Below are positions 1,912 through 61,810 of a stretch of 64,000 bases of DNA, piece by piece. The DNA lies in contig CAVSRN010000048.1 in NCBI GenBank assembly GCA_963730195.1, positions 30,466-94,465 of the forward strand, read 5' to 3'. The DNA is from an uncultured Alphaproteobacteria bacterium (lineage in GTDB: Bacteria; Pseudomonadota; Alphaproteobacteria; Geminicoccales; Geminicoccaceae). The notes under the pieces were generated by a model, which worked only from the letters and a program-made list of their open reading frames with translations, did no database searches and was not told the DNA's origin. The position numbers were made by a program, and so were the translations under genes. Each line of letters opens with the position of its first letter. Position 1 is the stretch's first letter.

Positions 1912-1980
1912 TCGTCTCCCATGGATCAGGATATCTGAACCCGGGGCGGCGTCGGCCGTTTCCCGGGGCGGGGCGATCGC

Positions 1981-2652: not shown

Positions 2653-2668
2653 CGCGCCATGCCCGCCG

Positions 2669-3340: not shown

Positions 3341-3375
3341 CTCAGATCGCGGCCGTCCGGCTCCGCCGCCCCGCT

Positions 3376-4239: not shown

Positions 4240-4288
4240 CCCTGCCGGGGGAGCGCGGCGCTCGCCGCCGGCAGGGCGACGCCCCGGC

Positions 4289-5113
4289 TCACTCCTTGTT
4301 GGCCAGGATCTGGGTGACGTAGTGGTTCATCCACTGGTCCATGACGCCCTCGGCGCGCAGCTCCTCGATCAGGATGTCGAGGGCCTGGATGTCCTCGAGC
4401 GAGGTGGTCTTGCGGAAGCCGAACGCGATCCCCTGCTTGGCGATCGCCGGGTCGGGCAGGACGGTCGCGCTCCACTCCGGGTGGCTCTCGGCGAACAGCA
4501 TGTTGCCGTCGGCGTCGTCGGCCAGGGCGTCGGCGCGGTTGGAGATCACGGCCATCCGCGAGGCGTCGAAGTCCGGCAGGCGGGCGATCGTGGCGTTGTG
4601 GATCAGGGGCGTGATCGAGTGGTCCTGGGCGGTCCCCGACATGACCGCGATGGTGACGCCCTTTTTGTCGAAGTCGGCGAGCGACTTCCAGCTCGGGTCG
4701 ATCTTCTGGTTGGTCTTATTGTAGACCAGCGAGATCTGATAGAACCAATAAGGCGCCGAATAGTTGATGGCGATCGCCCGGCGCGGGGTGCGGTTGAGGG
4801 CGACCGCGATGTCCCACTTGCCGGCCTGCATGCCGGCGATGATGTTGTCCCAGGTGGTGTCGACCACCTGCAGCTTGACCTCCAGGGTATCGGCGAGCTT
4901 GCGCAGCACGTCGATCGCGACCCCGCTCCACTCGCCGGTCTTGGGATCACGGATGGCGTGCGGGGCGGCGACCGCGGCGCCGACCTTGAGCACGCCCTCG
5001 CTCTGGACCTTCTCCCAGAGCTTCTCCTGGGCCTGGACCGGACCGCCGGCCAGCAACCCACCGAGGACCAGCGTGGTCACGCCGGCCAGCGCCATTCTCG
5101 CAAGGCTTCGCAT
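4289..5113 (-). CDS. amino acid ABC transporter substrate-binding protein
   Basis: Track ORF 4289..5176. Start trimmed to ATG 5113 (MRSLARMALAGVTTLVLGGLLAGGPVQA signal peptide), preceded by AGGGAGG. Family-3 SBP-like sequence. Confidence 0.85.
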   Translation of the reverse strand: MRSLARMALAGVTTLVLGGLLAGGPVQAQEKLWEKVQSEGVLKVGAAVAAPHAIRDPKTGEWSGVAIDVLRKLADTLEVKLQVVDTTWDNIIAGMQAGKWDIAVALNRTPRRAIAINYSAPYWFYQISLVYNKTNQKIDPSWKSLADFDKKGVTIAVMSGTAQDHSITPLIHNATIARLPDFDASRMAVISNRADALADDADGNMLFAESHPEWSATVLPDPAIAKQGIAFGFRKTTSLEDIQALDILIEELRAEGVMDQWMNHYVTQILANKE

Positions 5114-5260
5114 GTTCGGGCCTCCCTGGGGCTTCGGCGGGCGACCGGCGCGCCGGTTCTCCGCCGCCTGTCTCATGTTCGGGCCAAACTGTACGCAAAG
5201 TGTCGACAGGGAGCAACACGCAAGGCCGTGGCCCGCAGGCTGGCCGCGCCGGGTCCGGGC

Positions 5261-5965
5261 TCAGAGGTGGCGGGTGAGGCCGCCGTCGACCCGGAGGTTC
5301 TGGCCGGTGATGTAGCCGGCGCCGTCGGACAGCAGGAAGGCGATCGTCTTGGCCATCTCCTGCACCGTCCCGATCCGCTGCGCCGGCACCCGCAGCCGGT
5401 TGTCCTCGCTCTGCGGCAGGCTGTCGATGAACCCGGGCAGGACGTTGTTGATGCGGATGCCGGCCTTGGCGTACTGGTCGGCGTAGAGCTTGGTGAAGCC
5501 CGCGAGCGCGGCCCGCAGCGACGCCGAGACCGGGTAGGCGGGCTCGGGCTCGAACGCCGCGAAGGTCGAGACGTTGACGATCGCACCGCCACCCTGGGCG
5601 ACCATGACCGGGGTCACCAGGCGGCAGATCCGGACCACGTTCAGGACCAGCATGTCGAGCCCGGCGTGCCAGTCGCGATCCGGGATCTCGAGCAGCGCGC
5701 CCTTGGGCGGATGGCCGGTGTGATTGACCACCGCGTCGATCCGGCCGTAGCGCTCGCGGCAGGCGGCCACCAGGCGCTCGAGGTCGCCCGCCTCGGTCAC
5801 CGAGCCGCGCACCGCGATGCCGTCCAGCTCCTTGGCCAGCCGCGCCACGGCCTCCGAGCGCGACATCAGCGCGAGCCGGTAGCCGCCGGCCGCCAGTTCC
5901 CGCGCGACCGCGGCGCCGATGCCGCCGCCGGCCGCCGTCACGATCGCGATCGGTTGCGCTGCCAT
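5261..5965 (-). CDS. SDR family oxidoreductase
   Basis: 234-aa ORF with an N-terminal Rossmann motif (VTAAGGGIGAA) and short-chain dehydrogenase length and pattern. Confidence 0.85.
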   Translation of the reverse strand: MAAQPIAIVTAAGGGIGAAVARELAAGGYRLALMSRSEAVARLAKELDGIAVRGSVTEAGDLERLVAACRERYGRIDAVVNHTGHPPKGALLEIPDRDWHAGLDMLVLNVVRICRLVTPVMVAQGGGAIVNVSTFAAFEPEPAYPVSASLRAALAGFTKLYADQYAKAGIRINNVLPGFIDSLPQSEDNRLRVPAQRIGTVQEMAKTIAFLLSDGAGYITGQNLRVDGGLTRHL

Positions 5966-5999
5966 GGTCGCTCTCCCGCGTGTGGCCGTTGCCGCCCGG

Positions 6000-7270
6000 T
6001 CAGAACCGGTCGACCCGGTAGGGGTGGAGGTCGATGGTCGGGGGCAGGCCGGCGGCCAGCTCCGCGATCAATTGCCCGGTGAGCGGGCCGAAGGTCAGAC
6101 CGAGATGGCCGTGCCCGAAGGCATAGCTGACGTTGCCGAAGTGCCGGGCGCGGCCGATCACCGGCAAGGAATCCGGGGTCGCCGGGCGATGGCCCATCCA
6201 CTCGCTGCCGCCGCCGTAGCGTCGAGCGCCGGGTAGACGCGCCTGGCCTTTTGCACCAGGATTCGCGCCCGGGCGTAGTCGGGCGGCGCCTCGAGGCCGG
6301 CGATCTCGACCGTGCCGGCGACCCGCAGGCCCATCTCCATCGGCGTGACCACGAAGTGCTCGGCGGCGTAGAGGACCAGGCGCCGCGGCCGGACGCCGGG
6401 GTGGGGCAGGGTCACGTGGTAGCCCCGGTGGCTCTCGAGCGGCACGCGGTCGCCGAGCGGCCGGGCGAGCCGGTGCGACCAGGCGCCGGCCGCGATCACC
6501 AGCTGGTCGAAGGCCTGGGCGCTGCCGTCACCGAGCCTGGCCGCGAGCGCCCGCCGGTCCCGGGTCTCGATGCCGACGACCTCGGCGCGCCGCAGCCGGC
6601 CGCCGGTGCGCAAAAAATGCTCGGCGAGACCGGTCACCAGCCGATGGGGGTTGGTGATGTGGTACCAGCCGGGCATCCGGATGCCGAAGGCGAAATCGCG
6701 GGCGAGGTCGGGCTCGAGCTCGGGCAGGGCCGGGCCGGCGACCCGCTCGAAGGGGATGCCATGGGTGCGGCGCAGGTCCCAGTGCAGGCGTTCCGCGGCC
6801 AGCTGGCGCTCGTCGTCGTAGAGGTAGAGACAGTCCTCGCGCGCCAGGAGATCGTCGAGCCCGGCGGCCGCCAGCAGCGTCTCGAGCGGCGCTCGGGCGG
6901 CATGGGAGAGGGCGGCGAGCGCCGCCGCCAGAGGGCGCACGCGCGCCTCCGAGCCGGCCGCAAGGAAGCGCAGCAGCCAGGGCAGCGCCCGCGGCAGATA
7001 GCGCCAGCGGACCGCGAGCGGCCCGAGCGGGTCGAGCAGCCAGCCCGGCACCTCGCGCAGCAGGCCCGGCACCGCGAGCGGGATGATCTCGCCGGTCGCG
7101 ACCCCGCCGGCGTTGCCAAAGGAGGTCGCCTCGCCCGGCGCCAGCCGGTCGACGACCGTGACCTCGAAGCCCTGGCGGCGCAGCCAGCAGGCGCAGCCCA
7201 TGCCGACGATGCCGGCGCCGATCACCAGGACTTCGCGCCCGCCCGGGCCCGTCGCTCCGGAAGCCATCAT
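6000..7270 (-). pseudogene. FAD-dependent oxidoreductase (D-amino-acid/D-hydroxyproline dehydrogenase-like), frame broken
   Basis: N-terminal part in ORF 6158..7402 (VLVIGAGIVGMGCA dinucleotide fold; start ATG 7270 after GAGG). C-terminal part (SEWMGHRPATPDSLPVIG...GHGHLGLTFGP) is in ORF 6000..6197, in another frame. A 1-nt indel lies between about 6198 and 6225. Confidence 0.8.
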
Positions 7271-9214: not shown

Positions 9215-10102
9215 CTACGCCACCTGGGCCTGCTCGATGAACGGCTTGCCGCCGGCCGCGCGGATGGTCTCGTCCATGGCATCGCCGAGCGTCGGGCGCG
9301 GGTTGCGGTAGAGCACGCCGAGCGCTGGCGTGTTGGTGTCCATGGCCTGGGCCATCGCCGCCATCAGGTCGCTCGGCTCGTGGTCGGCGGCCAGGTGACG
9401 CACCTGCATGCCGAGGTTCTGATAGGTCTTGCTGGTCTTGTCGAAGGTCACGCAGGGCGAGAGGATGTGCAGGTAGGAAAAGCCGCGATGCGCGAGCGAC
9501 GCGGCGATCATGTCGGTCAGGTGATGGGGCTCGCCGGCGTAGGCCTGGCCGACCCAGCTGGCACCGTAGGCGAGCAGCATCATCAAGGGGTTGAGCGGCT
9601 GATCGCGGTTCTCGTAGGGGCTGGTCTTGGTCTTGAAACCCATGACCGAGGTCGGCGACACCTGGCCCTTGGTCAGGCCGTAGATGCCGTTGTCGAACAG
9701 GAGGTAGGTGATGTCGACGTTGCGCCGCGCCGCGTGCGGGATGTGGCCGCCGCCGATCGCGAAGCCGTCGCCGTCGCCGCCGATCGCGATCACCGTGAGC
9801 TTGTCGTTGGCGAGCTTGATCCCGGTCGCGACCGGCAGGGTGCGGCCGTGCAGGGTGTGGAAGCCGTAGGTGTCCATGAAGAACGGGAAGCGCGAGGCGC
9901 AGCCGATCCCGGACACGATCACCGCGTCCTTGTTCGCGATCTCGAGCCGGTTGAGGGCGAGCGTCAGGCCTTCGGTCATGCTGAAATAGCCGCAGCCCGG
10001 GCACCAGGTCGGCAGCGACTTGGAGCGGTAGGACAGGCGGCCGTTGCCCTGGATCTCCTTGAGTTTTTCTTCCAGGTAGATGGGCTCGCGGAGCTCGGCC
10101 AT
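9215..10102 (-). CDS. korB: 2-oxoacid:ferredoxin oxidoreductase beta subunit (TPP-binding)
   Basis: C-terminal 295 aa of track ORF 9215..11770 (MAELREP...WCPGCGYF...IGGDGDGFAIGGGH). ATG 10102 preceded by AGAGGGA. Confidence 0.85.
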   Translation of the reverse strand: MAELREPIYLEEKLKEIQGNGRLSYRSKSLPTWCPGCGYFSMTEGLTLALNRLEIANKDAVIVSGIGCASRFPFFMDTYGFHTLHGRTLPVATGIKLANDKLTVIAIGGDGDGFAIGGGHIPHAARRNVDITYLLFDNGIYGLTKGQVSPTSVMGFKTKTSPYENRDQPLNPLMMLLAYGASWVGQAYAGEPHHLTDMIAASLAHRGFSYLHILSPCVTFDKTSKTYQNLGMQVRHLAADHEPSDLMAAMAQAMDTNTPALGVLYRNPRPTLGDAMDETIRAAGGKPFIEQAQVA

Positions 10103-10128
10103 GGGACGGTCCCTCTTGTGGGAAAAAT

Positions 10129-11922
10129 TCAGGCGGCGGCGAACCGCCGTTTGGCGTCGACCTTCGCCAGACGCCGGATCTCGGCCAGGATGTCGTCGAC
10201 CGGCATCGGCCGGCCGGTCACCCGATCGAGACGGTGGACCAGGCAGCCGGTCGCGCCGGTCATCAGATGAGCGAACTGGCCCTCGAAGTTGAGCTCGGGC
10301 ACCAGGACCTCGCGGCAATCGGCGCAGAACCGGGCGATCGCCTCGACCGGCAGCGGCGAGAGCATGACCACCTTCATCGCGGCGCAGCGGATGCCCTCGG
10401 CGCGTGCCTTGAGGGTCGCCTCGAGCGCCTCGCCGAAGGTCGAGCCCCAGGCGATGACCCCGACCTCGACCTGGCCGTCGTCGCCGAACCGCTTCCAGGT
10501 CGTGAGGTCCGGGTGACCGACCGCCGTGGCGAGCTTGGCGTGCCGCTTCCCGGTCATGCGGGCGTGGACCTCGGGCGTGTCCTTGGGCCGCCCGGCCTCG
10601 TTGTGCTCGAGCCCGGTGATGGTGTGGATGCCGCCCTCCTGGCCCGGCACCGCGCGCGGGCTGACCCCGTCGTCGGTGAGCGCGAAACGCTGGTAGGCGA
10701 CGCCCGGCTGGCGGCCGTCGAGGCCTTTGATCAGGCTCGGCGCGAACGGCGCCTTGGCGGGCAGGGAGACGCTCTCGAGCCGGTTGGAGAGATAGAGGTC
10801 GAGCAGAACGATCACCGGCGTCTGATACTTCTCGGCGAGCTCGAACGCCTTGCCGGCGCAGCGATAGCAGCCCTCGACGTTGGTCGGCGCGAGCACGATC
10901 CGCTGGGCGTCGCCCGAGGCGCCATAGACCGCGAGGTTGAGGTCCGACTGCTCGGTCTTGGTCGGCATCCCGGTCGACGGGCCGCCGCGCTGCGAGACGA
11001 AGATCACGACCGGCACCTCGGCCATGACGCCGAGCCCCAGCATCTCGACCATGAGCGCGAGACCCGGGCCCGAGGTCGCGGTCGCCGCCCGGGCGCCGGC
11101 ATAACCGGCGCCGATCGCCGCCGAGATCGCCGAGATCTCGTCCTCGGTCTGCAGCACCCGCCCGCCCTGCTTGGGCAGGCGCGCCGCCAGCATCTCGAGG
11201 ATCGTGGTCGCGGGCGTGATCGGATAGCCGAAGAAGGTCTCGACATGGGCATCCAGGCAGCCGCGCGCGATCGCCTGGTTGCCGCTCATCATGACCGCAC
11301 CGGGCTCGGGCTTGCCGGTCGGCCCGAGCTCGATGAAGTCGAGCTTGAAGGTCCGGACCGCCTCCTCGTAGCCGGCATCGAAGGCCTTGATGTTGCCCTC
11401 GGTGATGGTGTCCGCCTTGCCCTTGAACTTGGCCGCGATGGTCTCGTGGAAGGCCGCCCGCGGCATGCCGTAGAGGCCGGCGACGAAGCCCAGCGCCACC
11501 ATGTTGCGCGACTTGCCGGCGTTGGTCGCGCGCTCCGAGATCTCGCGCATCGAAAGGCCATAGGGCAGCTGCGCCGGCCGGATGTGGCCGGAGATGTGCT
11601 GGCCCTCCTTCAGGGTCGCGATCGGCGCGTCGTCGTAGATCACCGCCCCGAAGTCGCAGACCTCCGGGACATGCGCGATCGCATGGCCATCGTTGAGCGA
11701 GACCAGGACGTCGGAGCGCGCCTTGAGCGAATAGACCTGGTCGGCGGTGATCCTGGAGCAGGCGATGCACTCGCCAAAACCCCGGATCTCGGCCGGATAG
11801 ACGTCGAAGGCGATGACCCGGTAGCCGGCACGCGCCATCGCCTGGTTGAGGATCCCGCCGGCGGCGATCGTGCCGTCGCCGGCGGAGCCGCAGATCGCGA
11901 TCTGGATGTCGGTATCGCTCAT
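10129..11922 (-). CDS. korA: 2-oxoacid:ferredoxin oxidoreductase alpha subunit
   Basis: Track ORF 10129..11949. Fused gamma/alpha-type sequence (ICGSAGDGTI..., GYPITPAT, TSGPGLALM). Start ATG 11922 after AGGTGAG. Confidence 0.85.
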   Translation of the reverse strand: MSDTDIQIAICGSAGDGTIAAGGILNQAMARAGYRVIAFDVYPAEIRGFGECIACSRITADQVYSLKARSDVLVSLNDGHAIAHVPEVCDFGAVIYDDAPIATLKEGQHISGHIRPAQLPYGLSMREISERATNAGKSRNMVALGFVAGLYGMPRAAFHETIAAKFKGKADTITEGNIKAFDAGYEEAVRTFKLDFIELGPTGKPEPGAVMMSGNQAIARGCLDAHVETFFGYPITPATTILEMLAARLPKQGGRVLQTEDEISAISAAIGAGYAGARAATATSGPGLALMVEMLGLGVMAEVPVVIFVSQRGGPSTGMPTKTEQSDLNLAVYGASGDAQRIVLAPTNVEGCYRCAGKAFELAEKYQTPVIVLLDLYLSNRLESVSLPAKAPFAPSLIKGLDGRQPGVAYQRFALTDDGVSPRAVPGQEGGIHTITGLEHNEAGRPKDTPEVHARMTGKRHAKLATAVGHPDLTTWKRFGDDGQVEVGVIAWGSTFGEALEATLKARAEGIRCAAMKVVMLSPLPVEAIARFCADCREVLVPELNFEGQFAHLMTGATGCLVHRLDRVTGRPMPVDDILAEIRRLAKVDAKRRFAAA

Positions 11923-11933
11923 CGGGCGCTCAC

Positions 11934-12965
11934 CTAATCGTAGTCCCAAAAGGACGAGTGGAGCCGGCCCTGGCCGTCGACCGCCAGGGTCTCGTCGACG
12001 AAGGTCCGAAACGACTGCTCGGCGCCGGCGATGTTGCGGGCCGCGATCTCGCCCATCGCCTTGACGTTCTTCCAGCCGTAGTAGAAGCGGTAGGCGTTCT
12101 CTTCCGCGCTCCAGATCTGGCAGACGTCGCCCGCCGCCCAGATGTGCGGATCGGTGGTCCGCAGCTCGGGGTTGACCAGGAGGCCGCGCTCGATGTCGAC
12201 GCCCGAGCCGACCATGAACTCGAGCGAGGGCACGAGGCCGTAGAACGCCATCACGACGTCGGCCGCGAGTTCCTGGCCATCGGTCAGCACGACCCGGCGC
12301 GCCGGGCCGCCACCCTCGGCCGCCTCGATCCGCTCGACCGGGCGGCTGTCCAGCACCTCGATCCCGGCCCGGCCGAGCGCCTCGAACAGGGTCGGCCGGT
12401 CGGCCTGGTCGACCTTGTGCGGCCAGAACGTCTGCTCGCTCGGGATCAGGATCACCCGGTGGCCGGTCGCCACCATGGCGTGGGCGACGTCGAGGCCGAG
12501 GATGTCGCCGCCGAGCATGATCACCGTGCCGCCCTCGGGCAGGGCGTCGGCGGTCGTGATCGCGGTCCGGTAGGTCACGAAGCTATGCAGGAGCGGCCGC
12601 GAATCGGCGAGCGTCGGCGGCAGATAGCCGGCCCCGCCGCTCGCGATCAGGAGGTGGTCGTAGCCGACCTCCTCGCGGTGCGCGAGCACGAGCATGCGCC
12701 GGCGCGGGTCGACCTGGACGACCCGGCATTTGCGCCGGACCGCGATCCGGTGGTCGTCGTAGTAGGACGGCGGATAGACCAGATAGTCGCGCCAGTCGCG
12801 CTTGCCACGGAAGATCTGCGGCAGCTGGTAGCGGTCATAGAAGAGCAGCGCGCCGATCGAGATGATCGTGATCCGGTTGTCCGGGTCGAGCTCGCGCAGC
12901 ACCGCGGCCGCGCGGTTGCCGGCGACGCCGTTGCCGATGATCACGTGGTGGGCTGGGCTCGCCAT
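11934..12965 (-). CDS. FAD-dependent pyridine nucleotide-disulfide oxidoreductase
   Basis: 343-aa ORF with HVIIGNGVAGNRAA and a second dinucleotide-binding motif (VIMLGGDILGLDVA), plus IWAAGDV. Confidence 0.8.
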   Translation of the reverse strand: MASPAHHVIIGNGVAGNRAAAVLRELDPDNRITIISIGALLFYDRYQLPQIFRGKRDWRDYLVYPPSYYDDHRIAVRRKCRVVQVDPRRRMLVLAHREEVGYDHLLIASGGAGYLPPTLADSRPLLHSFVTYRTAITTADALPEGGTVIMLGGDILGLDVAHAMVATGHRVILIPSEQTFWPHKVDQADRPTLFEALGRAGIEVLDSRPVERIEAAEGGGPARRVVLTDGQELAADVVMAFYGLVPSLEFMVGSGVDIERGLLVNPELRTTDPHIWAAGDVCQIWSAEENAYRFYYGWKNVKAMGEIAARNIAGAEQSFRTFVDETLAVDGQGRLHSSFWDYD

Positions 12966-50013: not shown

Positions 50014-50070
50014 GAAAAGGTGTCAGGAACCTTTTCATTCACGGGAGGAAAAGGTGTCAGGAACCTTTTC
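50014..50070. repeat. two copies of the REP-like hairpin GAAAAGGT-gtcagga-ACCTTTTC
   Basis: Perfect 8-bp inverted arms with a 7-nt loop at 50014-50036 and 50048-50070. Confidence 0.8.
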
Positions 50071-50100
50071 CATTCCCGGCGACGGCTCTGGACTGCTCGC

Positions 50101-50378
50101 TCAGGTGATGCAGAGGGCGCCGCGCGGCCGGTGCGGGTCGCGATCCCGGCGAGCTGGTCGGCAAGCGTGATCAGCGGGCGGAGCGCGGCCTGCGGGTCCT
50201 GGTCGTGCTGCGCCGGATCGGGCTCGAAGCGTTCGAGATAGACCGCGCAAGCTGGCGCCGGCGGTGCCGGTGCCGGACACGACGATAGAGCGATCCGGGC
50301 ATGGCCCGCGAACAACAGCCGGGTGCCCTGCTTGGTGCTGATCGCAGCCGTCGACCGGATCGGTGTAGCTGAAGTCGA
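50101..50378 (-). pseudogene. diverged duplicate of the pgm 3' end (fragment)
   Basis: Aligns by eye with 50499-50773 at a 398-nt offset, with scattered substitutions and indels. Encodes [10 protein letters not shown].../...[33 protein letters not shown] in broken frames. Confidence 0.75.
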
Positions 50379-50413
50379 TCGGCCTGGCGTCGATCGCCGA
50401 TGCTGCCTCGACT

Positions 50414-50469
50414 CCGAAAGTGTCGGACCTTTTCATTCACGGGAAAGAAAAGGTGTCAGGAACCTTTTC
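50414..50469. repeat. REP-like hairpin copies (one degenerate, one perfect)
   Basis: ccgaaagtgtcggaccttttc (degenerate) and GAAAAGGTgtcaggaACCTTTTC (50447-50469), immediately downstream of the pgm stop on the minus strand. Confidence 0.75.
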
Positions 50470-50498
50470 ATTCACGGCGACGGTCTCGATCCGCTCGC

Positions 50499-54375
<3,877 letters not shown>

Positions 54376-54509
54376 TTTTTTCTCCACATCTCCTGCAGGC
54401 CCGCCCCCGATACTCCCGCAACTCCGCCCGCCACGAAAGCCCTTTCCTGATCCGGCCGCCAAACGCTGTGCTGCTTCTCCCGTCCCACATTGTGATAAGC
54501 TTTCAAGCC

Positions 54510-54764
54510 ATGCCGACGCTCGCGATCATCGACGGCGTGAGGATCACGATGTACTACGCCGACCACGAGCCGGCGCACTTCCATGCGATCGCCGGGGAGG
54601 ATGAAATCGTGATCGGCATCGCCGATCTGAGAGTCATCGCGGGCACGGCACCACCCGCCCTGGTCCGCCGGGTCCGCACATGGGCGCGGCGACGCCAGGG
54701 CGAGCTCGCGCTCTGCTGGGTCCGCTGCCGTGCCGGGCAAAAGCCGGGAAGGATCGAGCGATGA
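54510..54764 (+). CDS. DUF4160 domain protein
   Basis: MPTLAIIDGVRITMYYADHEPAHFHA... ATG 54510 within track ORF 54468..54764. Confidence 0.75.
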   Translation: MPTLAIIDGVRITMYYADHEPAHFHAIAGEDEIVIGIADLRVIAGTAPPALVRRVRTWARRRQGELALCWVRCRAGQKPGRIER

Positions 54765-55195
54765 AGCTGCGAACCATCCAAACCGCCGACCCGCTGCCGG
54801 CAAGCCGCATCCGGCTGGAGTGGGACGACGGCTCCGAATCGGTCGTCGATCTCGCCCCGGTACTGGCCAAGGGCGGCGTCTTCGCCTTCCTTTCCGACGC
54901 CGCCGCTTTCAACGCCGTCACCGTCGGCGAGCGCGGCCGCACTCTGGTCTGGCGCGACCCCGAGGGCGACGAGATCGACCTCTGCGCCGACGCCCTCTGG
55001 CGCCTGGCGCATGAGGGCGACGACCGAAGCGGTCTGAGCCCGCGGCGGCCGGTTCCGCCAGCGCCACCCCCCGCCTTTGCAGCTAGACTGCCGCTTGCTT
55101 TCCCTTGGCCACGGCGCGCCGCGCGACGGTGGTCACCACCAGCTCGACCCGCCGGTCGAGACGGTTCAGGATGCGCACCAGCCGGTCGATGGTGA
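54761..55195 (+). CDS. DUF2442 domain protein (3' end uncertain)
   Basis: The ATG overlaps the DUF4160 stop (ATGA). The domain-like part ends near ...LWRLAHEG. The ORF tail overlaps the convergent antitoxin gene by about 110 nt. Confidence 0.6.
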   Translation: MKLRTIQTADPLPASRIRLEWDDGSESVVDLAPVLAKGGVFAFLSDAAAFNAVTVGERGRTLVWRDPEGDEIDLCADALWRLAHEGDDRSGLSPRRPVPPAPPPAFAARLPLAFPWPRRAARRWSPPARPAGRDGSGCAPAGRW

Positions 55196-55415
55196 AGCGG
55201 TCGATGTCGACCTTGCAGATGCGCGAGATGTCCGCGCGCTGCACCTCGGCGCGCTCGGCCGCGGCGGCGTGAGTGAGCCCCTGCTCGCGCATCGCCTTGA
55301 GGATCTCGGCAGCCAACGCCGATTTCATCTGCTCGGTGTCGGCATCGGCCAGGCCCAGGTCGCGGAACACGTTGCCGCTGCCTCGTACGACCTCGAGATC
55401 GTCGCCTTCGCTCAT
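55083..55415 (-). CDS. XRE-type HTH antitoxin (HigA-like)
   Basis: 110 aa (…LAAEILKAMREQGLTHAAAAERAEVQRADISRI…). AGGAGGA lies upstream. The ATG overlaps the toxin stop. Confidence 0.75.
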   Translation of the reverse strand: MSEGDDLEVVRGSGNVFRDLGLADADTEQMKSALAAEILKAMREQGLTHAAAAERAEVQRADISRICKVDIDRFTIDRLVRILNRLDRRVELVVTTVARRAVAKGKQAAV

Positions 55416-55750
55416 GACCGTTCCTCCTGCAACCGGCGCAACCGCTGCCGGATCAGCTCGATGTCCTGCTTGGGCGTCTTGATCCCGGCCTTCGATTTCT
55501 TCTGGAAGGCATGAACCACCCAGACCGCCGCACCCAGTCTCACCGCATACACGGCGCGGTAGGCGTCCGTGCGATGGGCGAGAGCGATCTCGAACACGCC
55601 GCTTCCGAGCCCGCGCAACGGCTTGGCGATCTCCGCCATTTCGCCCCGGGCGGCAGCGTCGAGCGCACGGGCCATCCGCCGCTGCACGGTCGTCGGAAAC
55701 CGCTCGAATGCCCTGCGCGCAGCCTTGACCCAGGCAATCTCGCGATCCAT
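55412..55750 (-). CDS. RelE/ParE-superfamily toxin (HigB / phage Gp49-like)
   Basis: 112 aa. GVFEIALAHRTDAYRAVYAVRLGAAVWVVHAFQKKSKAGIKTPKQDIELIRQR. Toxin-first order typical of higBA. Confidence 0.75.
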   Translation of the reverse strand: MDREIAWVKAARRAFERFPTTVQRRMARALDAAARGEMAEIAKPLRGLGSGVFEIALAHRTDAYRAVYAVRLGAAVWVVHAFQKKSKAGIKTPKQDIELIRQRLRRLQEERS

Positions 55751-55759
55751 CGCCGCATG

Positions 55760-55775
55760 GTGTCATATCTGACAC
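55760..55775. promoter_or_regulatory. palindrome GTGTCA-tatc-TGACAC upstream of the higBA-like operon (possible operator)
   Basis: Perfect 6-bp inverted arms 10 nt upstream of the toxin ATG, in the divergent intergenic region. Confidence 0.35.
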
Positions 55776-55891
55776 ATATGCGTCAACGACGGCTCTATGG
55801 CCAGTGGCGCGCGCTCACACTCGCCGCTTGGCATGCGCCTCAGGATACCGCAGAATGCTGCACGGAGCTGATTGAAACCTATCGTGACGCG

Positions 55892-57095
55892 ATGGCAGCG
55901 ACCCAGACCCTGCGGATCTTTCTGTCCTCGCCGGGCGACGTCGACGAGGAGCGGCAATGCGCTCGCGAGGCGGTCGCCGAGCTGCAGCGCGAGCCCCAGT
56001 TCGAGGCGGTCAAGCTCGAAGCCATCAGCTGGGACGATCCCCAGGCCCGCACGCCGCTTCCAGCACAACTCGGACCCCAGACCGCGATCGCGCGCGGCTT
56101 GCCGAAGCCATCGGAGTGCGACGTTGTCGTCGGCATTTTCTGGAGGCGAATTGGGTCACCGCTGCCCGTCGACACATACAGGAAACCCGACGGTAGCTCG
56201 TACATCTCAGGCACCGAGTACGAGTTGGAGGATGCTTTCAACGCCTCGCCAAGCCCCGACGTACTGCTCTACCGTCGGAGCGAGCAGCTGCGTTGGCCCG
56301 CCAGCGATCCTGCGCTGGGAGAAAAGCAGGAAACAGCTTGCGCGCCTGGACGCCTATCTCGAGTCCCTCGAGGCGACGCGGCGGTGCATCGACGCCTATC
56401 TGGCGCCCACCGAGCTGAAGGAGCGCCTGAAGCGCGATCTGCGCCAGCTTCTCGCCCGCAGGAGCTCCAAGCCTACTCCCCACGCCAGCGGCGAAAATCA
56501 GTTCGACGTTTTTCTGAGTTATTCTCACGACGACGCCAGTTGTGTTGAGCAGTTGGCATGCGTTTTAGAGGATATTCATAAATTCCGTGTCTGGTTGGAT
56601 AAGTGGATCCTGCCACCAGGAAAATTATGGCAGCAAGAAATCTTCAGAGCTCTGACCCAGACCGCTGCATGCGTTATATGTATTGGATCTTCTACGCCAA
56701 AGGGTTGGTTCTTGCAGGAAATCCACCGGGCTCTTAACATCCAGAGCAAAGATGAGAACTTCAGTGTTATACCTGTGATACTGCCAGGCGGCCACGAGAA
56801 TATGATAGATGATTTCCTAGAGCTTCACACATGGGTTGATTTATCAAGCGGCCTTAAGTCCGAGGAAGCAATGCATTTACTGATATGCGGAATTAAAAAA
56901 ATTGCGCCAGGCCGGTTTGTGTCTGCACGAGCCGAGTCTGCAAAAATGACGGTAACTCCAGTGATCACGAGGCTAAAAGAACTGGCAGAGTTACGTGAAC
57001 AAAAGATTATTGATGAGGACGTCCATAAGAGATTCCAAATAAATATGCTTGAGGACTATCTTCAAATCGAAGGAGTCGGCGATGTCAAACTGTGA
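55892..57095 (+). pseudogene. DUF4062 - TIR - SHOCT-like three-domain protein, one frame break
   Basis: MAATQTLRIFLSSPGDVDEERQ... (DUF4062 signature) is in the frame of track ORF 55511..56548. LARLDAYLESL...FDVFLSYSHDD...GWFLQEIHRAL (TIR) and ITRLKELAELREQKIIDEDVHKRF (SHOCT-like) are in ORF 55872..57095. Indel in an A-rich stretch at about 56325-56335. Start could be 55778. Confidence 0.7.
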
Positions 57096-58534
57096 ATACG
57101 ACATCTTCCTAAGTTACCGGCACACTCGACTCCGCTCTAGTGGGAGAACTGGCACATCTTTTGACAATCAGTAAGATAAATGTTTGGCTAGATCAATGGG
57201 AAATTGCACCGGGTGCTAGTTTCGTTGCTCAAATTAACGAGAGCATGGCAAAGGCTGCAACGATTGGTTTGTGCATAGGAGAGCGAGCGGGATCGACCCG
57301 TCAAGCGGATGGGATACACGACGTACTCGAACTGCGGGCAACTCGGCCTCATGTTACGGTCATCCCCATTTTACTTCCTAATGCTGATACTACCAATCTG
57401 CCGGTTGAGTTCAAAAAAAATAGTCAGTTCGTGGACTTAAGTCGCGGATTTGGAGACGAGCGTGGATTGAGAAGGCTGGTGACGACCCTGACGAGCGCTC
57501 TTAATGATCTCGGTATGCTGTTGCGGGAGGAGGGGAACTTGGTGGGCTCTAGAGCCTGCTTTGAGCGAGCGCTGCGGATCGACAAGTCTAGTTTTGGCTC
57601 CGACCACCCAAATGTTGCGATCGACGTCAATAACCTGGGCGGTGTCCTGAAGGACCTGGGGGATCTGGTGGGTGCCAAAGCGGCATTCGGGCGGGCGCTT
57701 GAGATCGACGAAAGGACGCTCGGCCCCGACCACCCCAACGTCGCCGTACGGGTCAACAACCTCGGCTCGGTGCTGAAGGAGCTGGGCGATTTGGCAGGTG
57801 CTAGCGCTGCCTTCGAAAAAGCGCTTAGGATCGACGAGGCGAGTTTCGGCGATGACCACCCCGAAGTCGCCACCGACCTCAACAACCTGGGCTTAGTCCT
57901 GAAGGACATGGGCGATCTGGCGCGCGCCAGGGTGGCCCTTGAGCGGGCGCTGATGATCTTCGAGCGTGTTCTCGGACCAGACCACCCCAAAGTCGCTACG
58001 AGCGTAAACAACCTGGGCTCGGTGCTCAGCGCTCTGGGCGATCTGGGCGGCGCTAAAGCAGCGTTCGCGCGGGCGCTTGAGATCGACGAGGCGAGCTTCG
58101 GGCCCGAGCACCCAAACATCCGAGTCAACAACCTGGGCTATGCACTGCGCGCCGAAGGCGATTTGGCGGGCGCGAGGGCAGCCTTCGAACGGGCGCTTCG
58201 GATCGGAGAAGTGAGCTTCGGCCCCGACCATCCCGAGGTCGCCAGAGACGTCAACAACCTGGGCTTGGTGCTGCGAGCGCAGGGTGATCTGGCGAGCGCC
58301 AGAGCGGCGTTCGAGCGGGCGCTCGCGATCGACGAGGCGAGCTTCGGGCCCGACCACCCCAACGTCGCCAGAGACGTCAGCAACCTGGGCTGGGTGCTGA
58401 AGGCCCAGGGCGATCTGGCGGGCGCCGGGGCGGCCTTCGAGCGGGCGCTTTCGATCTTCGAGCGCTTCCTCGGGCCGGATCATACGAACACGCGCAAGGC
58501 GCGCGGCAACCTGGAGCGCCTCGGCGTCGGTTGA
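57082..58534 (+). pseudogene. TIR - TPR (kinesin-light-chain-type, 8 units) protein, one frame break
   Basis: ATG 57082 after AAGGAG, overlapping the upstream stop by 14 nt (MSNCEYDIFLSYRH). LDSALVGELAHLL...WLDQWEIAPGASF and eight ~42-aa TPR units are in ORF 57140..58534. Indel at about 57115-57125. Confidence 0.7.
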
Positions 58535-58560
58535 AGCTCCCTGGCATCAGCCGGCCCGAG

Positions 58561-58778
58561 GAGAGAAAAGGTGTCAGGAGGAGAGAAAAGGTGTCAGGAA
58601 CCTTTCTTACAAGCGCGAGAGAAAAGGTGACAGGAACCTTTCTTACAAGCGCGGCAGAAAGGGAGGTGGCCGCTTGTGGAGAGAAAAGGTGTCAGGAACC
58701 TTTCTTACAAGCGCGGGAGAGAAAAGGTGTCAGGAACCTTTCTTACAAGCGCGGCAGAAAAGGGGGCGGCCGCTTGTG
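58561..58778. repeat. cluster of the same hairpin repeat family (4.5 core copies arranged as a ~100-bp unit duplicated in tandem)
   Basis: The core gagagaaaaggtg(t/a)caggaacctttcttacaagcgcg occurs at 58581, 58618, 58679 and 58717, with a partial copy at 58561. Every second core is followed by gcagaaa(a)ggg(a/g)gg(t/c)ggccgcttgtg. Confidence 0.85.
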
Positions 58779-58884
58779 GCGAGGGATCTACGTCGCCTGG
58801 GTCACAGGCGTCTTGGGGGAAAATCCTGGATTCGAGCCTTGCAGCCAATGGGCCCCCCGGCACCGGGCCGGAGGGCACCAGGGC

Positions 58885-59346
58885 TCACGGCCACCAGTCG
58901 GTGGTGATCTGGTCGAAGGCATAGGGACAGGCGAGGGGCAGGGCGTCGGCGGCGGCCTGCTCGCCATGGTCGCTGAGCGTGCCCAGAGCGTTGCGCCGGG
59001 CGATCGCATAGACGCGCGTCAGCTCGTCCCCCAGGGCTTGGCGCAGCCGCGGCGTGAGCCCGAGCTCGAGCCGGGCGCGGTGCTCGCGCACCGTCGCGCG
59101 CCAGCCGTTCCGCGGGTCCTGGGCCGGGCTGTGGGCGAGCTTCAGGAGATGCTCGATCACGACCCGCGCGTTGCTGAGCACCGCCTCGCGCTGCACGTCG
59201 CCAGCCTCCAGGGTGGCCTCGATCAGATGGTCCAGATCGAGCGCGTTGAAGCGCCGGGACCGCAGGAGCGCCGCCTGCTGCCGGGTCCAGGCGTAGAAGT
59301 CCTGCTCGTAGAGTTGCTGAGGCGCGGGTTCGACCTTGGTCGCCAT
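58885..59346 (-). CDS. DUF29 domain protein
   Basis: YEQDFYAWTRQQAALLRSRRFNALDLDHLIE...VIEHLLKL...CPYAFDQI. ATG 59346 (a GTG at 59349 is also possible). Confidence 0.75.
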   Translation of the reverse strand: MATKVEPAPQQLYEQDFYAWTRQQAALLRSRRFNALDLDHLIEATLEAGDVQREAVLSNARVVIEHLLKLAHSPAQDPRNGWRATVREHRARLELGLTPRLRQALGDELTRVYAIARRNALGTLSDHGEQAAADALPLACPYAFDQITTDWWP

Positions 59347-59494
59347 CACTAAGCTCCGGCTTTGACAGCTTGGGACAAGCTATCACAACCCGCGCCAAGC
59401 GTGGAGGATGCGGCCGCGCCCGTCCCCCGGCGCAACTCTGCTCTGGCGCCGAGCCGCGCCCTTTGCGTTAACGCGCTCTGGCGGCGCCCGGGCG

Positions 59495-59596
59495 TCCTAC
59501 GAGCGCGCGTTGGCGATCTGGGAGCACGTGCTCGGGGAGCATCATCCGAACACGCGCACCGTGCGCGCCAACCTGGACAGCCTCGGTGGCGGTTGA
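59495..59596 (+). pseudogene. remnant of a TPR-protein C-terminus
   Basis: SYERALAIWEHVLGEHHPNTRTVRANLDSLGGG* parallels the end of the TIR-TPR gene (FERALSIFERFLGPDHTNTRKARGNLERLGVG*). The nucleotides after the stop (ggttgaagct) also match. Confidence 0.55.
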
Positions 59597-60082
59597 AGCT
59601 TCCGGCGACCACCGGTGCAGCGCACTTCTGTGTCAGATGTGGCGCCTGTGGCGCATGGAGGCGTGCCGCAACCGGGCGCCAGCCGCCTTCCCCGAATTCT
59701 ACCAACCTTGCCGCCCGAAGGCCATGGTCATTGAGCAGATATTTGGTCACTCCTGAAGCTTATTTCACGATGACTGTGTATATGTTCTCGTAACGAGATT
59801 GATCCTCGGATCAAGCGGATCAATGGTCGGTTGATGCTCCGTTTGACTTGCCCCAGGAGTTCCTCACTTTGAATAAATCATGCGTCACCGATGCGCCACT
59901 CATGCGCCACTCAACAATCAAAGAGTCCTCACCCGCAAGCTCTTCGGTAGAACACAGGCCTACGATCTCAGACGGTCGGCCATCGCACAGCTTTCCACCG
60001 CCGAAGAGAAACTGGTTGGTAGCCATGGCTACACTACGCCAGTGATCGGATCATCGACAAACCATTGACGCCGGCAGAGACT

Positions 60083-61810
60083 TCAGCGGAGGCGCCAGCG
60101 TTGGGTGCGGGCGAGGACGCCGCGGGTGGCGAGCATGTGGATCAGCCGCGCGGCGACGTTGGTGTAGAAGATCATCATGCCCATCGCCGCGGCCGGCGCG
60201 ATGTCGCCGGCGTCGTCCATGTTGAGGACCGCGACCGAGGCCAGCGTCGTGTCCGGGCCATAGAGAAAAACGACCGCGGAAACCGTGGTCATGGCGTTGA
60301 CGAACAGATAGATCGAGATGTCGAGGATCGGCACCAGGCAGACCGGCACCGTCACCCGCCAGAAGGTCTTGTAGAAGGGCTGCTTCAACGACGCCGAGAC
60401 CGCCTCGAACTCGGGGTCGAGCTGCTTGAGCGCGGTGACCGCGGTCAGGTGGGCGACCGTGTAGAAGTGGGTGATGGTCGCGATCACCAGGATTGGCCAT
60501 CGTGTGATAGATCACGTTCAAGGGATTATGTCGGTGCGTTGAAGAAGAAGATATAGGCGAGCCCGAGCACCAGGCCCGGGACCGCCATCGGCAACATGGC
60601 GAACAGTTGGAAGAGGGTGCGCGCCGGCGCGGAAACCTTGCGCCTTCTCGACCAGATAGGCGCCGAGGAAGACGACGATGGTGCCGAACAGGGCGGTCCA
60701 GAGGCCGAGCTGGATCGAGTTGTAGTAGGACGACCAGCCGCCGCCGTCCATCAGGTCGAACCGGTAGTTCTTGAGGCCGAGCTCGAGGTTGTAGGGATAG
60801 AACTTGACCAGCGCAGCGTACTGGCAGGTGCCGAGGATGCCGAGGATGAACAGGCTGACCAGCAGAAGGTAGCCCAGCATCAGGAGGTCGAAGCGGCGGC
60901 TGGGCAGGGGTGTGAGCGGCACCGCGCGGGCGGAAAGCAGCGCCACCTGGCGCTTTTGGACCAGCCGGTCGACCAGGAAGGCGAACGCCGCCGGGATCAG
61001 GAGCACCACGCTGACGACCGCGCCCATCTCGAAGTTCTGCTGGCCGATCACCTGCTTGTAGACGTCGGTTGCGAGCACGTCGTAACCGCCGCCGATCACC
61101 TTGGGCGCGCCGAAGTCGGTGAAGGCCAGGGTGAACACCACGAAGGCGGCGCTGATCAGGCCGTAGCGCACGCCCGGCAGCGGTGACCGAGAGGAAGATC
61201 CGGGGCTTGCTCGCGCGCAGCGCCAGCGCCGCCTCGTAGAGCCTGGCGTCGGCGACCGAGAGCGCGGTCAGGACGATAATCAGCGCGTGCGGCAGCGTGA
61301 AGAAGACCTCGGCGATCACGATGCCGATCGGGCCGTAGATGTCGTGGCCGAACATCAGCCCATTTGATCAGGCCCTGGTTGCCGAACAGGTAGACCAGCG
61401 CGATGCCCGGGCAGGAGCGAGGGCACCAGGATCGGCACCATCGCAATGGTCTTGAACAGGCCCTTGGCCGGGACGCAGCTGCGGGTCAGCGCGTAGGCGA
61501 ACACGAACGCCAGCGGCACGGTGATGCCGGTCGTGATCAGCGCGACGTGCAGGCTGTTGCAGATCGAATAGGACAGCGCCGGGGTCGCGAAGTAACGGGC
61601 GTAGTTGGCAAGGCCGATGAAGCTGCCGTCGTGGGCCCGGAAGCTCTTCGAGAGCATGGCGTAGAGCGGCAGCACCAGGGTGATCACCAGGTAGAGCCCG
61701 ATCACCGCCATCAGAAGGCGCATCAGCAGAGCGTCGCGCCCGAGCCGCGGCCGTATTACTGTTCCAAGCGCCGCCGGTACTATGGTCGCGGACCTAGCCA
61801 TCGGGGTCAC
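60083..61810 (-). pseudogene. two-domain ABC transporter permease (iron(III)/2-aminoethylphosphonate type), about six frame breaks
   Basis: The continuous permease sequence can be read only by joining ORFs 61355..61810, 61156..61446, 60051..61355 (part), 60518..61171, two short unlisted frames and 60083..60487. Breaks near 61410, 61358, 61175, 60625, 60530 and 60495. Confidence 0.75.

Follow-up and report, generated by a model that had tools for sequence, protein, structure and literature searches.

The window, a 64,000-nt stretch of a contig from an uncultured alphaproteobacterium of the Geminicoccaceae, includes a variable islet with a HAD hydrolase gene on one side and an ABC transporter on the other. 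Within this islet, two overlapping genes on the forward strand encode a protein composed of an NIR (DUF4062) module, a stalk, a TIR domain and a helical tail (gene 1, 55892-57095) and a protein in which a TIR domain is fused directly to a TPR array (gene 2, 57082-58534). Divergent from gene 1, on the reverse strand, domain searches identified a Gp49/HigB-like toxin gene (55412-55750) and an HTH_37 antitoxin gene (55083-55415), together spanning 55083-55750; the same pair adjoins the single NIR-NB-ARC-TPR gene of a syntenic locus, L001, that proved central to the interpretation of the window. Directly 3' of gene 2, repeat analysis revealed tandem REP-like hairpin repeats with units of 36-38 nt (58558-58783, forward strand), which are absent from L001. 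Farther downstream, the final ~150 nt of the ancestral TPR gene recur as a second copy with greater divergence (59473-59630, forward strand; ORF 59408-59596). This copy runs on into DNA that shares 90% identity with the region 3' of the L001 gene; the segment separating both copies of the TPR gene 3' end contains a DUF29 gene on the reverse strand (58885-59349; E 2.3e-31). No tRNA or known RNA was found in the islet. The neighboring genes are DUF4160/DUF2442, HTH_37/Gp49, DUF29, HAD and ABC transporter genes, with toxin-antitoxin modules among them, and the first-pass annotation was right that neither a ThsA/SIR2 nor a cyclase gene is found among those adjoining the pair.

As assembled, both genes are frame-broken. 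Gene 1 reads in a single frame from the ATG at 55892 (MAATQTLRIFLSSPGD...) to GAA at 56330-56332 and resumes one base on, at CAG 56334, to reach the stop codon at 57093-57095. The reading frames and the sequences of homologues (..EKQ-QLARLDAYL..) place the break at a +1 insertion, an extra A in GGAAACAG (56331-56333, forward strand), and deletion of one A from this AAA run yields an uninterrupted protein of 400 aa. The start at 55892 agrees with the N-termini of homologues P0002-P0004, which indicates that an earlier placement at 55778 was probably 114 nt too far upstream. In gene 2, removal of any single base from 57118-57130 (forward strand) gives an uninterrupted protein of 483 aa, with C 57127 the best candidate for the inserted base because its removal restores the family motif SY-x3-D. 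One break per gene had been reported previously, and both prove to be +1 insertions; apart from the stops that these two single-base insertions cause, the genes contain no stop codons. Programmed frameshifting was considered and rejected, as neither break has a slippery site or a stimulatory stop and both are plain +1 insertions of the kind seen in the permease gene of the nearby ABC transporter. Compared with an intact orthologue, that gene carries six +1 insertions; pgm is disturbed as well, and frameshifting also affects the syntenic assembly L001. Breaks of this kind are not confined to genes 1 and 2, and, because the permease has six similar insertions, they may be assembly errors.

The NIR module and its two stalk helices occupy aa 1-192 of the gene 1 protein (55892-56468, forward strand), as delimited by profile, homologues, an AlphaFold model and DNA identity to L001. 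On gene 1, the DUF4062 profile (Pfam PF13271) aligns over positions 1-81 of 82 and reaches 24.2 bits, just under the gathering cut-off of 24.7. Close homologues of the module have precomputed PF13271 matches, the PADLOC model PDC-S60 matches the module itself, and NIR-NB-ARC and NIR-Sel1 proteins have N-termini 64-72% identical to it. DUF4062, formerly a domain of unknown function, is now described in 2026 preprints as a TIR-like NADase that depletes NAD+ as the effector of Avs and further systems (10.64898/2026.09.04.749371; 10.64898/2026.05.01.722283). Its predicted catalytic Glu in gene 1, E111 (56222-56224), lies in SGTEYE in a column that is invariant across 42 sequences (alignment A3) and corresponds to the conserved NIR catalytic Glu, E108 in PsAvs2 and E97 in KpSwz. 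The AlphaFold model of the module (pLDDT 90-98) has a beta-alpha-beta topology and two long helices; in Foldseek, its matches to NDT (8pqt) and MilB (4ohb) do not exceed a TM of ~0.5 and have E >= 0.03.

The gene 1 TIR domain follows at aa 204-341 (56502-56915, forward strand; TIR_2 profile, E 6.6e-21). Since the TIR half was poorly modelled in the full-length protein, leaving Foldseek uninformative, the TIR domain and tail were modelled alone, and this model matched AbTir (7uxu) with a TM of 0.78 and an rmsd of 3.0. A predicted catalytic Glu, E276 (56718-56720) in GWFLQEI, aligns with the Glu in W..YE of AbTIR, in agreement with the earlier remark that the domain keeps a W-x-x-x-E-like position. 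By profile, modelled fold and the Glu at the W..E position, the domain is thus a predicted TIR NADase. After a disordered linker, the protein ends in a two-helix hairpin, the tail (56952-57071, forward strand), which was defined by alignment A1 and by AlphaFold, whose TIR-tail model places the helices at residues 161-176 and 182-200 (pLDDT 74-84). The tail motif, L..IR.LR.EQLIDD.IALEYQRRLLD, is kept across the TIR subfamily of gene 1 (alignment A1). The domain order first proposed, DUF4062, helical linker, TIR and helix pair, is upheld by Pfam and AlphaFold, but the SHOCT label given to the helix pair is not: no Pfam match to SHOCT (PF09851) was obtained with the whole protein at E<=0.1 or with isolated tails at E<=1.

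ORF analysis again placed the ATG of gene 2 at 57082, 14 nt ahead of the end of gene 1 and 6 nt downstream of an AAGGAG ribosome-binding site (57070-57075, forward strand), as initially read. Profile searches with the gene 2 protein return TIR_2 (E 5.5e-16) and TPR_12 (E 1.2e-89) and no NTPase domain, confirming that its TIR domain is joined straight to ~8 TPR units with no NB-ARC or NACHT module between them. Neither gene has an NTPase domain in the Pfam profile search, and the STAND NTPase that lies between effector and repeat sensor in Avs and other STAND proteins is absent from both. At the catalytic-Glu position of the gene 2 TIR, alignments reveal a Gly codon, GGG (57311-57313, forward strand; QADGIHD). 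This position aligns with CWDELE of Cat1 and is Glu in all 11 of the 11 operon-partner homologues, whereas Glu is also missing from the column in several of the sequences closest to the gene 2 TIR. The gene 2 TIR therefore lacks the catalytic Glu of TIR NADases. It is also orphan-like: its best relative among 1.84 billion representatives searched with phmmer is 39% identical, and a word-indexed protein search gave no match. As the full phmmer scan returned distant relatives only (<=39% identical), no donor of the domain can be named.

The TPR array (57498-58534, forward strand) comprises ~8 units of KLC/NPHP3 type with a period of 126 nt, of which TRF counts 7.1 copies. It is resident-type. 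Compared with the L001 array, its DNA goes from 72% identical at the 5' end to 91% identical at the 3' end, and GC3 climbs from 0.71 to 0.93. The repeats belong to TPR_12/TPR_10, with TPR-S (PF20308) absent among matches at E<=0.1; on the homologue from locus L005, the TPR-S model gave E 0.023. A PF20308 sensor beside a TIR gene, as in BcTir/Tpr and TPR-S systems, is not found at the window locus.

Between the NIR module and the distal repeats lies an AT-rich block of ~1.03 kb (56470-57500, forward strand) that is foreign by GC, GC3 and the lack of homology to L001. It had been noticed by eye at ~56490-57640; computed GC and GC3 place it at ~56470-57500, where GC is 0.42-0.49, compared with 0.63-0.75 in the flanks, and GC3 is ~0.45, compared with 0.75-0.92 in the NIR head and distal TPRs. 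The NIR module, with a GC3 of 0.75-0.85, is resident-type. The left edge of the block is sharp (~56470-56500), and the right edge, at ~57500, is followed by a graded zone to ~57700. At the same site, L001 has a single NIR(DUF4062)-NB-ARC-TPR gene, whose NTPase contains Walker A and B motifs and is 31% identical to an NB-ARC protein (E 2e-13). The NIR region of the window is 70% identical to L001 at the DNA level up to 56460, no homology is found between 56460 and ~57520, and homology resumes at ~57520. Because homology to L001 stops and resumes at these points, base composition and synteny together show, at the level of sequence, that foreign low-GC DNA of ~1.03 kb took the place of the resident NB-ARC module in the window lineage. 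The block contains the gene 1 TIR and tail, the stop codon, the ribosome-binding site, the overlapping start and the gene 2 TIR, which is the core of a pre-existing two-gene operon composed of a TIR-tail gene and a TIR-TPR gene. As a consequence, gene 1 consists of a resident NIR head with a foreign TIR and tail, and gene 2 of a foreign TIR with a resident TPR array. Each join preserves the reading frame and coincides with a domain boundary. The suggestion that a TIR cassette had recombined into a DUF4062...TPR sensor gene is borne out by L001, which has such a gene at the site and whose homology brackets the block; base composition and this one syntenic relative also indicate which way the replacement went. 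A search around the block for the direct or inverted repeats that mark transposition found none. In blastn searches of plasmid and phage collections the block had no match, and tblastn of the TIR-tail against plasmids gave two distant TIR matches only.

The pair belongs to a module that we define as a gene for a small TIR protein bearing the conserved hairpin at its C-terminus and, next on the same strand, a gene whose product starts with a TIR joined directly to TPRs, and the window genes have this form, with their 14-nt overlap and the conserved tail motif. The arrangement is found in 11 of 13 genome-derived loci, overlapping or adjacent and on the same strand, and in about 40 of 51 metagenome loci, recurring in L002-L014 and L017; it ranges across bacterial phyla from Acidobacteriota to Actinomycetota and includes one archaeon (ANME-2). 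Intact pairs include those of L004 (5983-8206) and L005 (5992-9486). Among the 13 loci, the pair has no conserved third gene and no conserved ThsA, SLOG, Macro, SAVED or TPR-S sensor. PADLOC v2 has no specific model for the pair and returns generic TIR-level matches only, which, together with the recurrence across phyla, bears out the alternative proposal of an uncatalogued two-gene TIR system. Thus, the two readings originally offered as alternatives are both supported and describe one event. In the TIR-tail homologues, the N-terminal modules vary and include SEFIR, a second TIR, a DUF676 alpha/beta-hydrolase and a Ser/Thr kinase-TPR; these genes still precede a gene that opens with a TIR, and TPRs follow save where the contig ends early (L035). 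Apparent N-terminal extensions of the gene 1 homologues in L008, L013 and L014 proved to be open GC-rich reading frame rather than domains. No second NIR-TIR-tail protein was found among 5.8 billion proteins, leaving this fusion with no record of retention by selection; an in-frame stop interrupts the one other NIR-TIR fusion encountered (L015).

DUF4062 NADases and ATPase-less TIR-TPR defence are already known, while the linked two-gene TIR module is widespread but unstudied: literature searches with naming variants of TIR-TPR returned nothing beyond BcTir/Tpr and TIR-II. In NIR-STAND-TPR proteins, NLR-like Avs of the PsAvs2 type (10.64898/2026.09.04.749371), an N-terminal NIR of ~190 aa with the conserved Glu and a C-terminal TPR sensor array are likewise present, and the orthologous site in L001 has exactly that architecture; in contrast, the window has no STAND NTPase, is divided into two genes, and has two canonical TIR domains and a helical tail instead. 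TIR-II is a single TIR+TPR protein that defends E. coli and needs the TIR catalytic Glu, and variants of it with one or two extra proteins have been noted (PMC11350192). In architecture, gene 2 resembles TIR-II as a TIR fused to TPRs without an ATPase, but in the module a second TIR gene is obligatorily linked upstream and the gene 2 TIR of the window lacks the catalytic Glu. In BcTir/Tpr of Bacillus cereus, a TIR without the Glu and an NADase-TPR protein act together as a complex (10.1101/2023.05.26.542521); they are encoded by a two-gene operon in which a small TIR gene precedes an N-glycosidase/NADase-TPR gene. One partner is thus Glu-less in both cases; however, in BcTir/Tpr the Glu is missing from the small TIR, with a MilB-like head on the TPR protein, whereas in the window it is the TPR protein that has the Glu-less TIR, its repeats are of a different type (TPR_12), and the small partner has a predicted catalytic TIR and an NIR. 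Swarozyc, Vulcan and Evangelion share a DUF4062 NADase head, a helical stalk and a variable C-terminal module, which in the window is instead a TIR and tail that pair with a separate TIR-TPR protein. Thoeris (ThsA + ThsB) also combines TIR proteins in a small defence operon with NAD+ chemistry, but the window locus has no ThsA (SIR2/Macro-SLOG) partner.

By their predicted content, the domains of both new genes are all typical of NAD+-depleting antiphage systems. Collectively, the data are probably best explained by replacement of the NB-ARC module with a foreign TIR-pair core, which divided one gene into a TPR sensor gene and an NADase effector gene acting in abortive-infection defence. In this model, the gene 2 TPR array would sense a phage protein, and the gene 2 TIR, without the canonical Glu, would nucleate a heterotypic TIR-TIR assembly with the gene 1 TIR. 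The assembly would cluster and activate the gene 1 enzymes, TIR (E276) and NIR (E111), which would hydrolyse NAD+ and so halt the infected cell. TIR-TIR co-assembly would thereby take over the oligomerizing role of the lost STAND NTPase, and the TIR-tail protein would act as an adaptor bringing a variable N-terminal effector to the sensor. Such sensor-executor logic would be shared with the paired plant TIR-NLRs RRS1/RPS4 and the animal TIR adaptors MAL/MyD88, a comparison that is an analogy only, as the pair has neither NB-ARC nor LRR and homology does not extend past the TIR fold. Both TIRs retain Glu in most homologous pairs, which counts against a scaffold role of the gene 2 TIR as a rule for the family.

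A less likely explanation, albeit one that merits serious weight, is that recombination destroyed a working NIR-NB-ARC-TPR gene and that the remainder is decaying. The two breaks can be read as real frameshifts, the gene 2 Gly occupies a column that is Glu in every operon homologue, the NIR-TIR-tail architecture is unique and L015, the other NIR-TIR fusion, is also interrupted, and the locus bears a leftover gene-end copy (59473-59630) and inserted REP-like repeats. Decay does not, however, account easily for junctions that are in frame at domain boundaries, for an intact ribosome-binding site and overlapping start and stop, or for reading frames free of stops other than those from two single-base insertions. 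Moreover, the insertions in the permease, the disturbed pgm and the frameshifted L001 make indel errors the simpler explanation of the breaks, and the absence of Glu extends to several of the sequences nearest to the gene 2 TIR. Bacterial TIRs are often signal generators, as is ThsB of Thoeris, and the TIR or TIRs of the pair could make an NAD+-derived messenger for an effector that is encoded elsewhere or is the NIR head itself. The cADPR isomer produced by BcTpr (10.1101/2023.05.26.542521) and the Glu retained by both TIRs in most pairs are consistent with this idea, but we consider such signalling improbable, given that the pair has no ThsA, SLOG, Macro, SAVED or TPR-S sensor as a conserved companion, that the repeats are of KLC/TPR_12 rather than TPR-S type, and that no such receptor is among the neighbors in the window. 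Mis-assembly of metagenome reads, joining an AT-rich block from another organism, would fit the sharp GC step of ~25 points, the many indel problems in the window and the metagenomic origin of the related records, but it is very improbable, as it needs two breakpoints, both falling in frame at domain boundaries of one ancestral gene with head and tail in the correct order and orientation, and leaves the graded GC3 transition over the first TPR units to be explained.

On the favored reading, in which a foreign TIR-pair core replaced the NB-ARC module, a single event turned an NIR-NB-ARC-TPR gene into two genes, one for an effector that has two NADase-type domains and a separate one for the sensor. 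The window copy is a natural experiment in module exchange and illustrates the rewiring of NLR-like immune genes through short foreign cassettes. Should the pair prove to be a working defence, the catalogue would gain a widespread NTPase-free two-TIR system, which would offer a simple model of TIR-TIR contacts standing in for the STAND switch. More speculatively, the TIR-tail protein could be a general adaptor, a prokaryotic counterpart of the TIR adaptors in which heterotypic TIR-TIR assembly links interchangeable modules (NIR, SEFIR, second TIR, DUF676 hydrolase or Ser/Thr kinase) to an NTPase-free TIR-TPR sensor, and the window would then record the birth of such a system from an NLR-like gene through replacement of its NTPase module. 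Related loci place the pair in a defence context, with ThsB_TIR and SLATT, further TIR genes and a DUF4062 gene adjoining it.

The two same-strand genes at this locus are each split over two frames in the ORF listing and three-frame translation, and removal of a single base from each restores a full-length protein. Gene 1 (window 55892-57095, forward strand) starts at ATG 55892 (MAATQTLRIFLSSPGDVDEER...), which agrees with the N-termini of its homologues, so that the start at 55778 given in the first-pass annotation is probably too far upstream. Without one A of the AAA run 56331-56333, it encodes a 400-aa protein that agrees with homologues across the break (..GEKQE-QLARLDAYL..). Gene 2 (57082-58534, forward strand) starts at ATG 57082, 6 nt after an AAGGAG motif (57070-57075), overlaps gene 1 by 14 nt and, minus one base within 57118-57130, gives a 483-aa protein; the best candidate for the extra base is C 57127, whose removal would give the family motif SY-x3-D. 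In Pfam searches, gene 1 matched TIR_2 (E 6.6e-21) and the whole DUF4062 profile (24.2 bits versus a cut-off of 24.7), while gene 2 matched TIR_2 (E 5.5e-16) and TPR_12 (E 1.2e-89) and contained no NTPase domain. The gene 1 tail, previously read as SHOCT, did not match the SHOCT profile, even when isolated and searched at E<=1. AlphaFold predicts residues 1-192 of gene 1 to form a beta-alpha-beta domain with two long helices (pLDDT 90-98), from which Foldseek weakly recovered NDT and MilB; the TIR-tail half modelled alone comprises a confident TIR fold (TM 0.78, rmsd 3.0 to AbTir 7uxu by Foldseek), a disordered linker, and a two-helix hairpin. Across 42 aligned sequences, gene 1 and its homologues, G88 and E111 (SGTEYE) are invariant, E111 being the counterpart of the Glu reported in 2026 preprints to be essential in DUF4062/NIR NADases (10.64898/2026.09.04.749371; 10.64898/2026.05.01.722283), and the catalytic Glu of AbTIR aligns with E276 (GWFLQEI).

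The halves of gene 1 resemble different proteins, and a search of 5.8 billion proteins recovered its whole architecture only in P0001, a mis-called ORF of the window itself. Residues 1-190, the DUF4062 (NIR) head, share 64-72% identity with the N-termini of proteins whose next module is a P-loop NB-ARC-type NTPase (P0002, P0003) or a set of Sel1 repeats (P0007-P0013), and more distant relatives lead into nSTAND1/AAA_16 NTPases or SIR2_2. Residues 200-400 are 45-60% identical to small TIR proteins that share its C-terminal tail (P0015), a SEFIR-TIR-tail protein (P0020), and TIR-NB-ARC proteins (P0017, P0019, P0036). P0003 lies on a 650-kb contig in a neighborhood, L001, that is syntenic with the window and reads pgm, glycosyltransferase, HAD, toxin-antitoxin pair, HTH_37/Gp49, P0003 plus a 323-aa TPR ORF (a single gene interrupted by a frameshift), ABC permease, and ATPase. 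By blastn, the flanks are 87-93% identical, the toxin-antitoxin pair and NIR head (55109-56460) 70% identical, 56460 to about 57520 has no match in L001, and identity along the TPR array increases from 72% in its first unit to 91% in its final one. Residues 240-387 of P0003 carry Walker A and B motifs and match the P0017 NB-ARC region at 31% identity (E 2e-13), and thus the ~1.03-kb block sits exactly at the NTPase module of the relative. At the right junction (..LVTTLTSA|LNDLGMLL..), the second half matches ..SLTSLGYHL.. of L001. The block that had been judged AT-rich by eye over the TIR domains is so by computation: GC is 0.42-0.49 over 56500-57400 versus 0.63-0.75 on both sides, and GC3 is 0.75-0.85 over the NIR head and 0.80-0.83 as far as about 56480, drops to about 0.45 in the two TIR domains, and recovers along the TPR array from 0.55 to 0.92. 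Its left edge, at about 56470, is sharp, and its right edge, at about 57500, passes into a graded zone; no flanking repeats were found, nor any match in plasmid and phage collections. Since L001 homology brackets the block in place of the NTPase module, the earlier proposal that a TIR cassette recombined into a DUF4062...TPR sensor gene is borne out, and it is very probable that a foreign block replaced the NTPase module of an NLR-like gene. DUF4062 is a TIR-like NADase that serves as effector of an Avs2 protein (10.64898/2026.09.04.749371; 10.64898/2026.05.01.722283) and of Swarozyc, Vulcan, Vesta, and Evangelion, and is present in other NLR-like proteins; the ancestral gene at this site was therefore of a known kind. 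The locus is of wider interest because it clearly illustrates how a short foreign cassette has rewired an NLR-like gene.

The block holds the core of an operon of two genes, TIR-tail then TIR-TPR, that recurs across genomes. On the contig of P0015 (L002), 10 nt separate the TIR-tail gene from the next gene, which has a TIR at its start, continues into KLC-type TPRs, and is colinear with gene 2 at 30% identity. Scanning 185,579 species genomes for patterns from the TIR-tail alignment returned 12 loci, in Blastocatellia, Nitrospinota, Hyphomicrobiales, Nitrospira, Thermoanaerobaculia, Oceanospirillaceae, Paractinoplanes, an alphaproteobacterial MAG, and the archaeon Candidatus Methanogaster. Of the 13 loci L002-L014, 11 have a TIR-first gene directly downstream, with TPRs inside it in 10 and in an adjacent ORF in L014; no further gene is conserved with the pair in an all-against-all comparison of the 13. 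Metagenomes yielded 51 more loci, some near-duplicates, about 40 of which have the same downstream TIR-first gene (TPRs seen in 32); the remainder are contigs ending early or tail-less variants. The second gene mostly leaves no room for an NTPase, its TPRs beginning at about residue 160-280, and variants carry an extra WD40 (L009) or CHAT-STAND (L013). PADLOC v2 matched intact pairs only in part and at the generic TIR level (E 1e-8 to 1e-12), so the pair is not catalogued there, in keeping with the earlier suggestion of an uncatalogued two-gene TIR system. ATPase-free TIR+TPR proteins (TIR-II) protect E. coli, sometimes with extra proteins (PMC11350192), and BcTir/Tpr comprises two genes, a Glu-less small TIR acting in complex with an NADase-TPR protein (10.1101/2023.05.26.542521); neither the TIR-tail/TIR-TPR operon nor the NIR-TIR-tail fusion appears in the accounts of these or of the DUF4062 systems. 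In L009 (276-4468; Candidatus Methanogaster, an ANME-2 archaeon), a TIR_2 gene, the TIR-tail/TIR-TPR-WD40 pair, and, directly after it, a DUF4062 gene (E 1.7e-15) share one strand. The setting of L005, a Hyphomicrobiales MAG, is TIR-rich and defence-island-like, with a TIR + WD40 gene pair and a ThsB_TIR + SLATT pair adjoining the pair (1757-5759 and 9862-12176) and, by eye, ORFs resembling IS21 transposase genes just downstream.

The plain form of the first gene is about 200 aa, and several homologues carry N-terminal heads: SEFIR (P0020/L017), a second TIR (L019, L020), a DUF676 alpha/beta-hydrolase (L035), or a Ser/Thr kinase-Zn ribbon-TPR module (L041/L050, L062, L059/L060). The kinase-headed proteins (L041/L050 1673-4597, L062 1814-4609, L059/L060 4490-7534), of about 930-1015 aa, run through kinase, Zn ribbon, TPR, TIR, and tail, and a TIR-TPR gene comes next in every case. 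After every real addition the next gene opens with a TIR, and its TPR repeats are seen for all head variants except L035, whose contig ends too early. Apparent extensions in L008, L013, and L014 were rejected as open GC-rich frame only. NIR as a head of TIR-tail is found in the window alone among the 5.8 billion proteins; because it fits the variable-head pattern, a functional fusion is more plausible than an accident. The modular heads and wide distribution of this uncharacterised two-TIR operon give it broader interest. In five loci (L054-L056, L059, L060), a further small TIR gene precedes the kinase-headed one, forming three-gene arrays. A different NIR-linker-TIR frame, with one in-frame stop, occurs on a Methylotetracoccus contig (L015 6001-11656). 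The genes after it encode FGE-sulfatase, a TPR-S protein of 664 aa, and patatin, and the locus is a TIR system of the TPR-S type with a NIR head.

The first-pass proposal of a candidate NADase-type defence module was sound, and we predict a TIR/NIR NADase-type defence pair. The TPR array would sense a phage protein, and the sensor TIR of gene 2 would nucleate a mixed TIR assembly with gene 1, activating the catalytic TIR and NIR head and leading to NAD+ depletion and abortive infection; TIR-TIR assembly would stand in for the lost NTPase. This mechanism as a whole is tentative, with slightly less than an even chance of being correct, and the copy in the window might or might not work. That the pair is a dead relic is rather unlikely. 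Both frame breaks are +1 insertions, like those in the nearby ABC transporter permease gene (60083-61810, reverse strand) and at a similar density of about 1 per kb. Against its intact 570-aa L001 orthologue, the permease has six single-base insertions (60497, 60533, 60622, 61182, 61357, 61405) that split it into four ORFs; they form two groups of three, with frame regained after each group, a pattern suggestive of indel errors in the assembly or of an unusual pseudogene. The phosphoglucomutase gene pgm (50498-52118, reverse strand) is also disturbed, with indels at 50956, 51433, 51490, and 51497; L001 is itself frameshifted in the NIR-NB-ARC-TPR gene and in pgm (4586-6222), which is called as two ORFs split near the same place. 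The breaks are thus unreliable evidence of pseudogenisation. The gene 2 TIR has Gly (QADGIHD; 57311-57313), aligned with the Glu position of Cat1, at a column with Glu in 11 of 11 operon homologues. It is an outlier whose best match among 1.84 billion representatives is 39% identical, with none scoring below 1e-30. Glu is also absent in 6 of its 20 nearest relatives, mostly TIR-TPR proteins (G, I, Q, Q, D, D), so the Gly could be characteristic of the lineage and not recent damage. A system that produces a messenger and has an unlinked effector is improbable, and an assembly chimera even more so.

The surroundings differ from L001 in other respects. A DUF4160/DUF2442 pair (54404-55100) versus a FitA-like/PIN toxin-antitoxin pair (L001 8196-9150) marks a variable islet, and the HTH_37/Gp49 pair common to both is about 70% identical in DNA versus about 90% in the flanks. 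A glycogen-synthase-like gene (52118-53713) occupies the position of a GT4-type glycosyltransferase gene in L001 (6272-7483), with no DNA homology between them; this makes a second replacement by a non-orthologous gene in the vicinity. A REP-like hairpin repeat (GAAAAGGTGTCAGGAACCTTTC), absent from L001 at corresponding sites, forms 36-38-nt tandem units at 58558-58783 and 50014-50468 (7 copies over both places versus 0 expected by chance), and both arrays adjoin a duplicated gene 3' end: that of pgm (50100-50383 and 50498 onward) and that of the TPR gene (58410-58567 and 59473-59630).
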